From an uncultured archaeon (GTDB lineage: Archaea > Asgardarchaeota > Heimdallarchaeia > Heimdallarchaeales > Heimdallarchaeaceae), in contig CAZHRF010000007.1 in assembly GCA_964534625.1 (NCBI GenBank), forward strand, positions 1 to 64,000: a DNA stretch of 64,000 nt. The letters are read 5' to 3'. This document shows positions 3,305 through 13,571 of the stretch, piece by piece. Each line of letters starts with the position of its first letter. Positions within the stretch are counted from its first letter, which is position 1. The position numbers and the translations under genes were made by a program. The notes beneath the pieces were generated by a model. The model made no database searches, had not been told where the DNA came from, and was given only the letters and a program-made list of their open reading frames with translations.

Positions 3305-5203
3305 ATGGAAATCCTTATTGTAGATGATGAACCAGATTTTCTATTTTTAACTAAAAAATTCATTGAGGATCAAAATAAGGATTTTAATGTGCATACTGTT
3401 GAAAGCGCTAAAAAGGCTTTACAATTACTAGAAGAACACAAGTTTGATATTATTATTTCTGACTATCAGATGCCCAAAATAGATGGTTTAAGTTTCTTAC
3501 AAACACTCAGAGAAGAAAAGAATTTAGATATACCATTCATCATATTTACGGGGAAAGGGGCGGAAGAAGTAGCTATTCAAGCACTTAATCTTAAAGCAAA
3601 CAGGTACATCCAAAAAGGAGGAGACATAAAGACGCAATATGGTCTTCTTGTTGATGCAATTATACGTGAAGTAGATCATTATCAAGCTGAAAAAAAAATA
3701 GAAGAAAGTGAAAAAAGACTAAGGGAGAGTGAAGAAGTTTTACGTATAGTCCTTGAAAACTTATCACACGGGGTTTTTCTTCATGATCTTCAAGGAAATT
3801 TTGTATTAGTAAATAAAGTTGCAGCAGAAAGAACCCAGTACACAAAAAAAGAACTGCTTAAGATGAAAGTTGGAGAGATAGATGCTGGCGATATGTCTGA
3901 ATCAGAGCGAGAAAGAATGTGGGAAAAATTGAAACATGGAAAAGTAATTAATTTTCGTTCTTATCATAAACGCAAAGACGGAACCGTTTATCCAACAGAA
4001 GTGTATCTAAATGCTATAAGAATAAAAAAGAAACCATTGATTCTCGCAATTACCCACGATATTACACAAAGAGTACAACAGGAGCAAATCCTAAAAGAAA
4101 ATGAAAAAAGGTGTAGCGATTTAGCGGATTTGTTACCTTCAATGGTACTTGAAACAGATAATAATTTGAGAATTGTCTATGCGAATAAAATGTTTTTTGA
4201 GAAAATGGGTTACAGCAAAGAAGATCTGCTTAAAGGACTGACTATCTCTGATTTAATGGTGGAAGAAGAAAACTTAAAGATAAAAGAAAACCTCCTAAAA
4301 GGAACTAATGAGGATAATAAAAAAGCATTAGAATACACTTGCAGAACAATAGAAGGAAAAGCTTTCCCAGTTTTAGTTCATTTAACAGATATCAAGCAAA
4401 ATGAACAGATAATAGGTAAAAGGGGGATTATAATTGATATTAGTGAATTGAAAGGAGTAGAAAAACAAAAAGAGTTCTTAAATGCGTTCATCAATCATGA
4501 TATAAAGAACAAAAGCATAATTATTCAAGGATATATAGATTTGGTAGTAGAGAAGATTAATAGTCTTTGTAATATAATGGATGGATACATGCAAGAAGGT
4601 GAGTATGACCAGGGAGAAGAAAGAAAAAAGAAATTACTTAAAACTACATCAAAAGACATTCAGGGCTATTTAGAGCAAATATATTCTGTGAACACACTCA
4701 ATCTAGAATTAACCAACAAATTAAACACTATTGGTAAGGTAGAACATGAGATACTTACAACTATAGATCTTAAAAAGGTAGTAATAGAGATAGAACAGAT
4801 GTATAAAGAAATATTGGAAGAAAAAGGGATTAAACTAATCTTAGATCTTCCAAAAACAAAGTGCACTGTAAGAGCAGGAGAGTTTTTAAAAGAGGTCCTA
4901 TCAAATTTAGTAGAAAATGCAATAAAACACGCTAATTGTACAAAGATAAAAATAAAAATAGTGGAAAAGAATCAAGAAGGAGTTGTTACTTGTATCATTG
5001 AAGACAACGGGATAGGAATCCCTGTTGAAAAAAGAGAAAGAGTATTTGAAACAATATTAAACAAGAGAGGGAGAGAAGGAGGATATGGATTATTTCTAGT
5101 GCGAGAGATTGTACAAACATACGGAGGAAAAATAATTCTAAAAGAATCAAAATCTCTAGGGGGAGCTAGGGTAGAAATAATTCTGAAAATAAAAAAAGAA
5201 TGA
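3305..5203 (+). CDS. Hybrid sensor: receiver + 2 PAS + histidine kinase
   Basis: ILIVDDE...SDYQMP...FTGKG receiver; two PAS repeats; H-box NHDIKN, N-box NLVENAIKH, DNGIG, GYGL. Confidence 0.92.
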   Translation: MEILIVDDEPDFLFLTKKFIEDQNKDFNVHTVESAKKALQLLEEHKFDIIISDYQMPKIDGLSFLQTLREEKNLDIPFIIFTGKGAEEVAIQALNLKANRYIQKGGDIKTQYGLLVDAIIREVDHYQAEKKIEESEKRLRESEEVLRIVLENLSHGVFLHDLQGNFVLVNKVAAERTQYTKKELLKMKVGEIDAGDMSESERERMWEKLKHGKVINFRSYHKRKDGTVYPTEVYLNAIRIKKKPLILAITHDITQRVQQEQILKENEKRCSDLADLLPSMVLETDNNLRIVYANKMFFEKMGYSKEDLLKGLTISDLMVEEENLKIKENLLKGTNEDNKKALEYTCRTIEGKAFPVLVHLTDIKQNEQIIGKRGIIIDISELKGVEKQKEFLNAFINHDIKNKSIIIQGYIDLVVEKINSLCNIMDGYMQEGEYDQGEERKKKLLKTTSKDIQGYLEQIYSVNTLNLELTNKLNTIGKVEHEILTTIDLKKVVIEIEQMYKEILEEKGIKLILDLPKTKCTVRAGEFLKEVLSNLVENAIKHANCTKIKIKIVEKNQEGVVTCIIEDNGIGIPVEKRERVFETILNKRGREGGYGLFLVREIVQTYGGKIILKESKSLGGARVEIILKIKKE

Positions 5204-8419: not shown

Positions 8420-9817
8420 TTAAAACATTAATTTTGGCTTTTTTTTCAAAGATATAAAGTCACAAATTTCATTTTCTGTCAAAGATTTTGATGGATCCCA
8501 ATACAAAATATTATGCTTTTCCAGAAAATTCTTTTTTTCTTCCTTATTTTTTAGTTTAAAATAGTTTTTTGTGGTATTTAAACCAAGGCTTTTTCTTTCA
8601 AATTCTCGTGCATAATAGTCGAATCCCATTCTAACGCATATATTATGTCGTCTAACATTTCTTCTAAATTGTTTAATCAATATATCTGACCATTTTTCAT
8701 GGATAAAATAATCATCATTTGTTTGTTCATAATTTCTTGGATTATATTTATCAAATTTTTGATCCAATGGACGGAATCTACAATCTGAAATTTGAACTTG
8801 CCATTCAAAGCATTTTGCTCTTTTTTTTTCCATTTCATCAAAAGGTATATCCCAATTATATAACATAAACAATTCCAAATCTTTCGAATTATATCCTGCA
8901 TTTACTAAAATATCTAATTGTTTTTTAATTTCATCTTTTTTCTCATATCCCCAATCCCAGGCTATTCTAACATTTCTGAAACTTGCCTTTTTTAATTTAT
9001 TAGCAAGTTCTGGATCACTCATTAATATCCTTCCATCGAATCCACTTTGAGATTCACACCAAAGTATTTCTCTTTTTTTCTTTAATCTAATCAATTCATC
9101 TAATATATTATGTACATTTTTATTTTTGAAGAAATTATTATCATAAAACACAATTTTTCTTTTGAAGATCTCTTCTTTTATTGAAGGTTTTGATGTTTCT
9201 TTTGGCTCTATTCGCCATGTACCACAAAAAGGACAACTTCTAAAACATCCCCTTTGTGCATGTAATATTTGAAAATCAACATCTGAAATATATTTATCGT
9301 AAATTTTCTCCATTCTTTTTCCTTTTACACTTTCTGCTTCTGGATATGTTCCCTTATGAACTTCATCACATTTAGTTAGTTTTTTTGTTTCTTCTACACC
9401 AAACAAACTAGCTGCAATACCACCTACTACCGTCTTTGTATTCGGAAACAAAGTTTTGTAATGTTCTACACTTTTTTTGACATCATTAATCCAGTATGTG
9501 AATAGTGATGTTATCCAGACTTCATCTGGTTCGAATAGCCAATATTCTTGATTGGAAATAAGGTCAAATGAATAGTTCATTTGGATAATATTTGAACACG
9601 TTTTATGATTCATTATAGGGGTTATAGATGAATAAATAGGGGTTATAAAACTGGTAATAGGCTTATTACCTCTTACTAATTTAAACCTATTTCCTTTGTC
9701 TTCTAATACTGCTGCTATTTTTAGTAATCCAATTGGTAAAAAATCTTTGTGATTCTTACTTTTTGTAGGCAAAGGAAAATCTGGTTCCACCAACAAATAT
9801 TTTTTACTTTCCATCAT
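8420..9817 (-). CDS. Cobalamin-binding-like domain + radical SAM protein (paralog 1)
   Basis: PIGLLKIA...WITSLFTYW...VVGGIAAS N-terminal domain; RGCFRSCPFC CxxxCxxC; FYDNN. Confidence 0.85.
   Translation of the reverse strand: MMESKKYLLVEPDFPLPTKSKNHKDFLPIGLLKIAAVLEDKGNRFKLVRGNKPITSFITPIYSSITPIMNHKTCSNIIQMNYSFDLISNQEYWLFEPDEVWITSLFTYWINDVKKSVEHYKTLFPNTKTVVGGIAASLFGVEETKKLTKCDEVHKGTYPEAESVKGKRMEKIYDKYISDVDFQILHAQRGCFRSCPFCGTWRIEPKETSKPSIKEEIFKRKIVFYDNNFFKNKNVHNILDELIRLKKKREILWCESQSGFDGRILMSDPELANKLKKASFRNVRIAWDWGYEKKDEIKKQLDILVNAGYNSKDLELFMLYNWDIPFDEMEKKRAKCFEWQVQISDCRFRPLDQKFDKYNPRNYEQTNDDYFIHEKWSDILIKQFRRNVRRHNICVRMGFDYYAREFERKSLGLNTTKNYFKLKNKEEKKNFLEKHNILYWDPSKSLTENEICDFISLKKKPKLMF
9615..9647. 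repeat. 12-bp direct repeat (ataggggttata x2, 21-nt period) in the variable loop of radical SAM paralog 1
   Basis: Copies at 9615-9626 and 9636-9647, encoding ITPI...ITPI. Confidence 0.8.
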
Positions 9818-9879
9818 AAACTGGTCTATCCTTGTATATATTAGTATTTACTGATCATGTTTAAATTTTACGATCCAAC

Positions 9880-10097
9880 TAGTCTTTGCTGGGATTTTCC
9901 CTTTCACCTGGCCCCGCGCTATTCGCTTGCCTTTGAGTCTTGTTCGTTCCTGACTATCCTTCGTTGGCCTCTCAAGACCTTCAGGCTATCGCTTTAGTGT
10001 CGTGCCCAGATGTGAGTTCGTACTAAAACTCATACGTTGAGGTAGAATTATTCCGACAAAAACCTTTTGGTCGGTTTCTCCCCAACGTACCCTCGCA
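9880..10097 (-). ncRNA. Candidate structured non-coding RNA or leader, family unidentified
   Basis: ~49% GC (hand count 106/215) in much more AT-rich flanks; at least 4 hairpins; two A-C mismatches on + become G-U on -; BRE/TATA upstream on -. Confidence 0.6.
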
Positions 10098-10123
10098 TTT
10101 TTAAATAAGACGAAAGTCACTTA

Positions 10124-10140
10124 GATATATACCGTTTTTA
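10124..10140 (-). promoter_or_regulatory. Putative BRE+TATA promoter for the structured element / radical SAM 1
   Basis: Minus strand taaaaacgg-tatatatc about 27-30 nt before the GC-rich block starts. Confidence 0.45.
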
Positions 10141-10223
10141 CTAACAATAATTTTAAATATGAATCTATTAGTTATATATTAAACACTTGTATGGTATAAT
10201 AATGGGTTTAATGGGGTTTTTCA

Positions 10224-13200
10224 ATGTATAAAAACGAAAATAAATTTGTTCACTTATTGGAGACCTATTTAGTTGATAGATTATCCGGTAATGATAAAGA
10301 ATATGAGTTTATTGAAGGGACAAGAAAACCCTCAAATGAACTAATAATTGGGAACCTAGGGGATAAAGATGAGGAAGAATTACATCTCGTGACAACTAAA
10401 ACCAAAACAAATTCAATCCGATTGAAATTTTTAACAAAAACAAATAGTTCAATTTCTATTCAAGTGAAATTCTCACTTTATTATCAAGCTTTTCCATCTT
10501 ATGAACGATTTTTGACTAAAATAAGAAATAAAATCCTAAATACTTTTGAATTATCAAATAAACCAGCTTTATCCATAAATAATATTATTGAATTTCTAGA
10601 GAACGAAGAATATGGTAGTCTTAATCTTCCTGTTGGCTGGAAACGTTTGGATGTTACTCCTCAAAAGATTAAATTCGACATTTCCAATTCTTTTTCAAAT
10701 GCAAAACCACATTTTGATGATGCTATAAAACAAATTAAAGATGATCCATATAGTACTGGTTCTTCTTTTATGATGATAAAAGAGGATTTTACAATACCAT
10801 TATCAAACATTAAAACAGAGGAAGAATATATTGATTTTATTCAATCCATTAAATTTGATATGCCCATGTTGAATTGGCAATTGAAGGTTCAATGTGAAAC
10901 ACGAAATTATAAAAAACAAAATTGTGATGAAATCACGTTAACCTTTCTAAATGATACATTATGTGATAATTCTTATGAAACTTTCATGTTTAATTTTAAT
11001 GCTCATATTGATCTAAAAAACAATGAATTGTGTCCTTACTGTTTTTCTTATGAATATGAAGGATATAATGAATCCTACTCAAATTATCTCCAAACAACTA
11101 ATTGTGATGCTAAATATGATGCAGAATTAAATACAATTCAAACAAGACATTATGCTAGGTTTGAACAGCCTTCTATTATTCCAAAGACTGATTTTACGGA
11201 TTTAGCTGGAAATAGTTTTTCTCTTAAATTTGAAGATTTATCTGATGATTCTACAATTGATCGTATTTTAGATAATTTAATTGATCAGATGCATTCCTAT
11301 TTGGAGTTTTACAAAAAACAACCCCAATACCAGAATGATGAGAAGTTTACAAATTATACAACTTGTTTTTCAGTTAATTTTGAAAGAATAATGGATGGTG
11401 TTAAATTAATTAAACAGAATAAGATAATTAGGCAGTCATTTCAATTGTTAAATGAAACATTTAAACAAGCAAGTTCTTACGATAGTTGGAGGGTCTTTCA
11501 ACTATGCTTCATATTGATGCTTATTCCTGATATTGTTGAAAAAAAATCTAGAAGAAATATTACTGAAGTTTTGCATGTACAAACGGGTGGGGGTAAGTCT
11601 GAAACTTATTTTGGATGTGTAATTTTTTCAGCCTTTTTTGATCGCTTAACTGGTAAAAATTTTGGACTAACAGCCATCACAAAGTTTCCATTGCGTATGT
11701 TATCTATTCAACAATTACAGAGAATTGCAAGAATAATGATCTTTGCTGATAAAGTCAGGAGAGATTATGAAATAGACGGCGAGCCTTTTTCTGTAGGTTA
11801 TTTTGTAGGTAATAATATTGACTTTCCTGGTGATAATTGTAAATTAATAAAGGAGATCAAAAACAAGCAGATTAAAGGGAAGATAATCGAAATATGTCCG
11901 TTCTGCAAAACTAACAATGTAATTTTGAGTGTTTCTGAGGAAGAAATGACCATTTATCATAAATGTACAGACTGCAAAGAAAAGTTTAACTTGTTTTTTA
12001 TTGATAATGAGATATATAGAAAAATACCCACTTTTATTGTTTCAACAGTTGATAAGCACTCATCAATATCACGAAACAGGAGGTACAGGAATCTTATTGG
12101 AGGAAAGTTGGATAAATGTCCAAAAGGTCATGGTCTTATTCCACATGGGGATAAATGCTCATATGTAAATGAAATAGTAAATGACCGAAAAAACAAGTGT
12201 AATGAAACTGGTGAGAGAGTAAATATTGATTTTTCTACAGCCCCTACCTTAATAATTCAAGATGAAATGCATCTTATCAAAGAAAGCTTTGGAACAATAG
12301 ATTCTCATTTTGAAAGCTTAATTGAAGTAATGCAGCAAGAAATGAGTGGTTATGGAATAAAAAATATAGCCATGACTGCAACTATATCTGGTGCGAACCA
12401 TCAGATAAAGCAGCTATACAATAAACAAACAAATATTTTTCCTTCAAAATCTCCTTTTGGAATGGGAGATAATGATTTCTTTCATGAACTAATTGAAGAA
12501 CATGGTAATGTAAAACTTCAAAGGATTATCCTAGGTTTAAGACCAAATGCTAGAGATAATCAATTTGCTTGTTCTTTGACACTTAGGCATCTTGCAAATT
12601 TTTATTCTGATATTGAAAATAATAGGTCTGAATTTTGTAAAAAGTACGGTTTTAATTATTCTGTGCTAGATAAGCTTCTTGAAAGATATAAATCTGGACT
12701 TACTTATCATAACAAAAAATCAGATGTTCATACAATGGAATATTATTTACTTGATGTTGTAAACTCGCATTTGAAAAAATCAGTTAAAGTACAAGGAAAA
12801 CCATTAACTGGTGATAACTCTTTAGATGAAATTAAAGAATTAATTGAAGAAATTGAAAATGCTAATTTATCTAAACAAAAAGACCTTATTTTTACGTTTG
12901 CTACAAGTGTCGTATCACATGGTGTTGATATTGGAAAATGGAACATAATGGAATTTCAAGGAATCCCAAGATCAACAGCAGAGTATATTCAGTCACTTAG
13001 TCGAGTGGGTAGAAAGAATCTAGGTCTAGTATTATTGTGGTTTTATGGTAATAGAGTCCGAGATGTATCATTTTATCACAATTTTTCAAACTACCACGAT
13101 ATTTTGGAACATCATGTCAATAGTATTCCTATATCTAGGTGGGCAAAACTTGGTGTGGATCAAACGTTTCATTCTGTTTTTTGTGCATCAATAATCAACT

Positions 13201-13571
13201 TTTTTGCTGATAAATATAATCGACCACTTTATACAGTTGATGCTGTAAATGATTTGTTCAAACAAGATTCAGTAATTGAAGAATTAATTGATTTTATTAA
13301 AAAAGCATATCATGTTAATGAATCAAATCCAAAATCACATTTTTTGAATGATTATATTCCAAGAGAAGTAGAACAACGATTAAAGGCCCTCAAGACCCGT
13401 AATTTTAGTCGTAACTCAAGATACTTTTTCCCCATCGCTTTAGATTCTTTATCTAAACCCTTATATCGTACTCAGTATGGTATGCGAGGAATACAAGATG
13501 AGCTCATAATAAAACCCAGTAGTGATGATAAAAAGTTTGTAGAAGAATATCTAAAAGGTGAGAATAAGTGA
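10224..13571 (+). CDS. drmA: DISARM DrmA-like SF2 helicase
   Basis: QTGGGKSE Walker A, PLRMLSIQQLQR, TVDK, QDEMH, TAT, SHGVDI, EYIQSLSRVGR; 1115 aa; followed by DUF1998 and PLD genes. Confidence 0.85.
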   Translation: MYKNENKFVHLLETYLVDRLSGNDKEYEFIEGTRKPSNELIIGNLGDKDEEELHLVTTKTKTNSIRLKFLTKTNSSISIQVKFSLYYQAFPSYERFLTKIRNKILNTFELSNKPALSINNIIEFLENEEYGSLNLPVGWKRLDVTPQKIKFDISNSFSNAKPHFDDAIKQIKDDPYSTGSSFMMIKEDFTIPLSNIKTEEEYIDFIQSIKFDMPMLNWQLKVQCETRNYKKQNCDEITLTFLNDTLCDNSYETFMFNFNAHIDLKNNELCPYCFSYEYEGYNESYSNYLQTTNCDAKYDAELNTIQTRHYARFEQPSIIPKTDFTDLAGNSFSLKFEDLSDDSTIDRILDNLIDQMHSYLEFYKKQPQYQNDEKFTNYTTCFSVNFERIMDGVKLIKQNKIIRQSFQLLNETFKQASSYDSWRVFQLCFILMLIPDIVEKKSRRNITEVLHVQTGGGKSETYFGCVIFSAFFDRLTGKNFGLTAITKFPLRMLSIQQLQRIARIMIFADKVRRDYEIDGEPFSVGYFVGNNIDFPGDNCKLIKEIKNKQIKGKIIEICPFCKTNNVILSVSEEEMTIYHKCTDCKEKFNLFFIDNEIYRKIPTFIVSTVDKHSSISRNRRYRNLIGGKLDKCPKGHGLIPHGDKCSYVNEIVNDRKNKCNETGERVNIDFSTAPTLIIQDEMHLIKESFGTIDSHFESLIEVMQQEMSGYGIKNIAMTATISGANHQIKQLYNKQTNIFPSKSPFGMGDNDFFHELIEEHGNVKLQRIILGLRPNARDNQFACSLTLRHLANFYSDIENNRSEFCKKYGFNYSVLDKLLERYKSGLTYHNKKSDVHTMEYYLLDVVNSHLKKSVKVQGKPLTGDNSLDEIKELIEEIENANLSKQKDLIFTFATSVVSHGVDIGKWNIMEFQGIPRSTAEYIQSLSRVGRKNLGLVLLWFYGNRVRDVSFYHNFSNYHDILEHHVNSIPISRWAKLGVDQTFHSVFCASIINFFADKYNRPLYTVDAVNDLFKQDSVIEELIDFIKKAYHVNESNPKSHFLNDYIPREVEQRLKALKTRNFSRNSRYFFPIALDSLSKPLYRTQYGMRGIQDELIIKPSSDDKKFVEEYLKGENK

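Follow-up and report, generated by a model that had tools for sequence, protein, structure and literature searches.

Three kinds of described system come close to the GC-rich block analysed here, which lies between a radical SAM gene and a drmA-like gene in the genome of an Asgard archaeon. Like the block, MITEs are small, non-coding, multi-copy and intergenic, and TIRs are found in the family; here too a sister family carries 5–6-bp target-site duplications, and the transcripts would fold stably. A review of MITEs describes direct repeats as waning over time, which fits the decayed copies in this genome. For bacterial MITEs, stably structured transcripts and MITE-derived small RNAs have been described (PMC10969869). 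Solo or truncated IS ends that remain after a deletion likewise place one transposon end beside unrelated sequence, in this case at the edge of a defence island. Cobalamin and SAM riboswitches likewise present a GC-rich fold upstream of a radical SAM gene, here one with a weak B12-domain match.

The window is a 64,000-nucleotide stretch of contig CAZHRF010000007.1 (assembly GCA_964534625.1, an uncultured archaeon of the Heimdallarchaeaceae); the contig is C7 of a 3.37-Mb assembly that has 32% GC and comprises 120 contigs. The radical SAM 1 gene (8420–9817, minus strand; an ORF with a weak match to a B12-binding domain) and the drmA-like SF2 helicase gene (10224–13571, plus strand; an ORF with Helicase_C and DEAD matches) are separated by a gap of 406 bp, which holds the sharply bounded GC-rich block. 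In 100-nt windows the GC content is 45–53% across ~9850–10100, against 20–30% on either side, and the block as a whole spans 9870–10120. Windows of 120 nt with at least 50% GC represent the top 0.2% of the genome and form 131 peaks, the rRNA operon among these. A sequence-only reading had described an abrupt GC block lacking a long ORF, and both the 100-nt GC scan and the ORF list bear this out: no ORF longer than 46 aa was listed across the block, which holds no transposase gene and gave no Pfam or protein match. The same reading had seen no fit to tRNA, SRP, RNase P, cobalamin riboswitch or omega-RNA, and here Rfam and ARAGORN agree. No Rfam family matched at the gathering score anywhere in the window. 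The Infernal search that had been proposed as a check was run at E up to 10 over 9700–10300, and no match overlapped the block, whether to HEARO/omega-type, SRP, RNase P or any other Rfam covariance model. ARAGORN likewise found no tRNA in the block, with introns on or off and at lowered thresholds.

Both flanking genes are preceded by a TATA-like box that we regard as a putative promoter. For radical SAM 1 this is TAATATATAC (9834–9843, minus strand), which covers positions −26 to −17 from the start and lies downstream of the block; for drmA it is TATAATAAT (10195–10203, plus strand), at −29 to −21. Genome-wide, TATA-like hexamers have a sharp maximum at −30 to −26 before start codons, which suggests that many mRNAs have no leader or almost none, and SD-like words (GGAGG/GAGGA) form a separate peak at −15 to −10. 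Since both proximal boxes lie outside the block, the block itself is probably outside both flanking mRNAs.

The block is a composite of a segment that is repeated in the genome (10013–10120) and one that is unique (9870–10012). The repeated segment (minus strand; BLAST and nhmmer) was annotated as the left-end portion of a non-autonomous transposon. A search for further copies in the genome, as had been suggested from the sequence alone, found three more, so that this long family comprises four copies of a 108–120-bp unit, window copy included. The copy at C42:309–418 is 91–93% identical to that of the window and the copy at C47:7516–7623 is 83–85% identical, while the copy at C63:4241–4322 is more diverged. 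The settings of the copies are mutually unrelated: that on C42 adjoins genes for an MFS transporter and a secreted repeat protein, and that on C47 a GT4 glycosyltransferase gene. The start of C42 (1–130) also carries about four copies of a 33-bp tandem repeat within a minus-strand ORF, whose product has a signal peptide and the repeated peptide EMFTVEIEGIT.

Conservation between the copies begins exactly at a terminal inverted-repeat-like end, GTGACTTTCGTCTTA (10106–10120, minus strand), a degenerate form of the consensus GTGACTTTCTCCTCA. From there the repeat is laid out as the GTGACTTTCTCCTCA end, the TATA-like TTTAAAAAT, ~13 nt and an inverted core, TGAGGAGAAA. In the window the TATA-like box occupies 10097–10105, within the loop that separates the terminal repeat from its inverted subterminal copy; it is kept in all long-family copies and at one end of every 178-bp MITE (described below). 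Its action as a promoter, and the direction of that promoter, are putative. The repeat contains three copies of the 10-bp core TTTCTCCTCA. The first copy is direct and lies within the terminal repeat (10106–10117). The second is the inverted subterminal copy TGGGGAGAAA (10075–10084, minus strand; consensus TGAGGAGAAA), which is SD-like and able to pair with either flanking core copy. The third, TTCTACCTCA (10038–10047, minus strand), is again direct, with one extra A, and provides the 3′ arm of a long interrupted hairpin. Repeated subterminal sites are the typical look of transposase-binding sites in transposon ends, and the core copies are most likely such predicted binding sites. Copy-to-copy homology ends at 10012, and three independent copies lose it at almost one point (108–120 bp).

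The end module of the long family recurs in a second family, of which we found copies of 178–179 bp at C10:12257–12434, C2:70836–71014 and C67:5507–5685, and a degenerate fourth copy at C83:985–1148. These elements are bounded by 15-bp TIRs (GTGACTTTCTCCYCA), and similarity between them halts exactly there. Three of them are flanked by perfect direct duplications of 5–6 bp (TATGA/TATGA, TTAAAA/TTAAAA and GTACAT/GTACAT), and the combination of TIRs and duplications marks true transposition of this family. It carries four copies of the TTTCTCCTCA core, arranged as two inverted pairs, and the loop at either end holds a TATA-like box. Both ends of the 178-bp element have the end module in common with the first ~45 bp of the long-family unit, and the MITEs at C10, C2 and C67 have the 15-mer of 10106–10120 at either terminus. 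An HMM built from twelve end modules, with the window copy left out, recovered 10120–10065 on the minus strand (E = 8.8e-5) and had no other match within 9600–10300. Between the long family and the 178-bp family, nhmmer E values ranged from 1.8e-4 to 3.3e-3. Solitary near-matches to the terminal 15-mer, with 1–2 mismatches, occur at C17:14200 (minus strand), C43:6108, C88:1619, C92:2370 and C10:34362, and may be older solo ends or chance.

One member of the long family is complete. The C63 copy is a 452-bp element (4241–4692) with a right inverted repeat, ATGACTTTCTCTTGA, which ends at 4692 and matches the TIR at 11 of 15 positions by hand count; the two arms of the element have one and three mismatches to the TIR consensus. 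The right-end module follows the same design (GTTCTCCTCAA, 27 nt, TCAAGAGAAAGTCAT), and the flanks carry a GTAAT direct repeat, with a 1-nt offset on the left side. The interior, ~250 bp long, is unique in the genome. It contains a 75-codon open frame, unmatched in Pfam, together with a perfect 14-bp palindrome pair (GAGGAGAACGGATA/TATCCGTTCTCCTC) close to the right end.

For the window copy, neither the end-module HMM nor mismatch scans detected a right TIR or a right-end module in 9600–10300. Likewise, no second end was found for the C42 and C47 copies, and the window, C42 and C47 copies show neither a common downstream block nor a significant flank repeat that could be a target-site duplication. 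A candidate right TIR at 9891–9906 (GGGATTTTCCCTTTCA) agrees with the consensus at 9 of 15 positions and with the C63 end at 11 of 15 (hand count). It was dropped, being missed by both the mismatch scan and the HMM and lacking an adjoining duplication. The left flanks resemble the 3′ end of the unit by eye, yet this likeness is at chance level.

The repeat is not conserved outside this genome. BLAST found it in none of 60 relatives. With one mismatch allowed, the end module has eight occurrences here and none in the 399 other genomes searched from the phylum. Exact-pattern scans returned only seven chance matches, in unrelated bacteria, from GTDB genome contigs, none from JGI metagenome contigs and only two chance matches from IMG/VR. 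On one viral contig (IMGVR_UViG_3300020049_003752:668–710), GACTTTCTCCTCAAG-N19-CTTGAGGAGAAAT stands right before an ATG, where it looks like an SD-sequestering hairpin that is otherwise unrelated to the element. An autonomous parent, sought as an inverted TIR pair around a transposase-sized gene, was not found in this fragmented assembly of 120 contigs, which is ~90% complete; the parent element may be unassembled.

With moderate confidence we interpret the block as the non-coding remnant of a small non-autonomous transposon inserted between divergent promoters. The element would have landed between those of radical SAM 1 and drmA. Its left end would be the drmA-proximal 108 bp (10013–10120, minus strand), which would consist of the terminal repeat, the TATA-like box, the inverted core, the third core and two short hairpins, and the core copies (TTTCTCCTCA/TGAGGAGAAA) would have bound the transposase that once moved the element. 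The long interrupted hairpin would then arise because the core copies are mutually inverted. The adjoining 143 bp would be the private interior of this copy, comparable to that of C63, and the right end would have been lost or have decayed. Such a block would be without present function. A relic of a mobile element had been among the suggestions made from the sequence alone. This suggestion fits 10013–10120, with its MITE end module and dispersed copies; no relative of 9870–10012 was found in this genome, in 100 related genomes, at related radical SAM loci or in protein space. A match to a known IS end had been named as a finding that would speak against a structured RNA; in substance the MITE-family end module is such an end, although the parent IS was not found.

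The step that assigns the orphan segment to the element is the weakest of the argument. This segment (9870–10012, 143 nt, annotated on the minus strand) has ~53% GC, more than the repeat, and decaying junk would not usually reach such a value where the genome has 32% GC. No second copy was found in the genome (nhmmer, E up to 10), a covariance model of the segment recovered itself alone in the genome and had zero matches in 100 relatives, and searches of Pfam and of protein sequences revealed no relatives. We regard the segment as a probable private interior belonging to this copy, because the C63 copy has a unique interior as well. It is fairly unlikely that 10013–10120 alone is transposon-derived and the orphan 143 bp unrelated older DNA beside the insertion, such as a foreign GC-richer fragment or what remains of a gene or RNA gene that has been destroyed. 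The stop of inter-copy homology at 10012 and the excess of orphan GC over repeat GC both agree with that explanation, as does the frame that begins at the repeat's conserved ATG (10033), which is open for 61 codons save one TAG. However, at 50% GC an open frame of 61 codons is nothing out of the ordinary, the ATG is not preceded by start signals, and the read-through peptide has no match among 1.84 billion representative proteins or in Pfam. Nor was any Rfam, tRNA or rRNA fragment matched, and no sign of a decayed gene or known RNA was found in the segment. Two further candidates were rejected. A small protein read from the conserved ATG (MSFSTNS...) has no homologues and no SD or TATA at the proper distance; its frames diverge at once between copies, and the ATG is missing in C63. 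Readings of the orphan hairpin as H/ACA-like, C/D-box or SRP-like lack box motifs or model support.

The hairpins listed in the sequence-only reading are present. On the minus strand the outer stem of the long interrupted hairpin joins 10034–10047 with 10075–10089 and is the inverted second core copy paired with the third (TTTCTCCTCA); pairing of the first core copy with the second is a possible alternative. The inner CCGAC/GTCGG hairpin (10053–10057 with 10070–10074, minus strand) is disrupted in C47 and intact in the other three copies. A second hairpin, ATGAGTT-N8-AACTCA(C) (10012–10033, minus strand), is the final conserved part of the repeat and is lost in C63; a further hairpin, GGGATTTTCCC, lies at 9891–9901. 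The minus strand of the block folds to −73.6 kcal/mol (z = −4.4), which no shuffle equalled, and the plus strand to −59.2 kcal/mol (z = −2.1). The orphan segment forms a single long imperfect hairpin on the minus strand (−42.9 kcal/mol, z = −2.9), whose minimum free energy structure is also the centroid and makes up 9% of the ensemble; its plus strand gives z = −1.5. For this copy, the better minus-strand fold agrees with the argument, drawn earlier from potential G-U pairs, that the minus strand is the relevant one. A good minus-strand fold would also be expected of a structured RNA, and together with the high GC of the orphan it keeps the alternatives alive.

One of these alternatives, which we judge unlikely, is that a transposon end gave rise to an independent minus-strand gene for a small RNA. 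Transcription of this gene would begin either at the TATATATC box, which lies immediately beyond the element, or at the internal TTTAAAAAT box. The RNA would adopt a fold made up of the 15-bp interrupted hairpin, the second hairpin and the long hairpin of the orphan segment; an exposed CCUC-containing stretch might act on SD-like GAGGAG sites. The unmatched minus-strand fold and the coincidence of optimal and centroid structures in the orphan are in its favour. Moreover, the window and C42 copies differ at three bases in ways that make G-U pairs on the minus strand, and GC as high as that of the block is otherwise found mainly in RNA genes of this genome. Against it, the main structure has just one double change on an alignment of four near-identical copies of half the block, a score equalled by 130 of 500 column shuffles, and on the same alignment the alternative helix has zero. 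The better-folding strand is the element-forward one in the window and in C42, but in C47 the reverse strand folds better (z = −5.0 versus −2.2), and the C63 copy is unstructured on both strands (z = −0.25 and −0.41). This pattern fits freely drifting DNA-level inverted repeats and not a selected RNA. In addition, a run of five U lies inside the first hairpin, and such a run tends to halt archaeal RNA polymerase. Homologues were found nowhere, neither by BLAST in 60 relatives nor with the covariance model in 100. A more specific proposal, which is improbable, is that of a lineage-specific, transposon-born small RNA made from the minus strand between the two defence genes, which through the GC-rich orphan hairpin and the exposed CCUC stretch would regulate mRNAs that contain an SD, those of the DISARM/radical SAM island possibly among them; if true, such an RNA would represent an early stage in which a mobile element becomes a regulator in an Asgard archaeon.

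Two other suggestions had been made from the sequence alone, a B12- or SAM-sensing leader of radical SAM 1 and an RNA component of the defence system. Either would be in keeping with the position of the block, which has a B12-domain-like radical SAM gene on one side and drmA on the other, and with the stable minus-strand fold, which points toward the former. We found homologues of radical SAM 1, at 41–59% identity, in 15 other genomes (400 of the phylum searched) and three metagenome contigs. Among the loci examined, the gap before the gene measures from a few nt to ~190 nt, often within an operon; an upstream GC peak is seen in none of them, and nhmmer matched the block at none. The radical SAM paralogue in the same window is not preceded by such a block either, and related loci and genomes yielded no match to the block, either by sequence search or with a covariance model. 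A sensing leader is further contradicted by the lack of any cobalamin, SAM or other riboswitch match at E up to 10 and by the TATA-like box that stands between block and start, close to the genome-wide peak at −30; the probable position outside the mRNAs argues against it as well. As for an RNA subunit dedicated to the DISARM-like system, it is the lack of conservation that speaks against it, and half of the block recurs beside unrelated genes. Both roles are very improbable and, by this lack of conservation, largely refuted.

The methylase-less DISARM and radical SAM system thus appears to operate without an RNA partner or riboswitch, and work on it can centre on its proteins. For the annotation of Asgard genomes, these results mean that an intergenic block that is rich in GC and folds well can, in these AT-rich genomes, turn out to be transposon debris, and that copy number is worth checking before a structured RNA is proposed. 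Such elements can also set TATA-like boxes beside genes. For catalogues of archaeal mobile DNA the element family may be of modest interest, with its GTGACTTTCTCC end, repeated TTTCTCCTCA cores, 5–6-bp duplications and variable interiors.

Compared with the described systems, the block departs from cobalamin and SAM riboswitches in having no model match and no conservation before the homologues, and in its probable location outside the mRNA. As regards solo or truncated IS ends, random truncation does not explain why three independent copies lose their homology at almost one point (108–120 bp). MITEs are typically AT-rich, whereas the elements here are GC-richer than the genome. The long-family copies also differ from MITEs in having ~110 bp in common and then private interiors, and the window copy in being one-ended, with no detectable duplication and no parent IS found. 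With the 178-bp family, the window copy has the terminal 15-mer, the TATA-like box and the inverted subterminal core in common; beyond ~45 bp that family and the long family are unrelated, and the 178-bp elements have both ends and clean duplications, unlike the window copy. In the strict sense, the window copy is not a MITE, but the 178-bp family and the C63 copy of its own family are.
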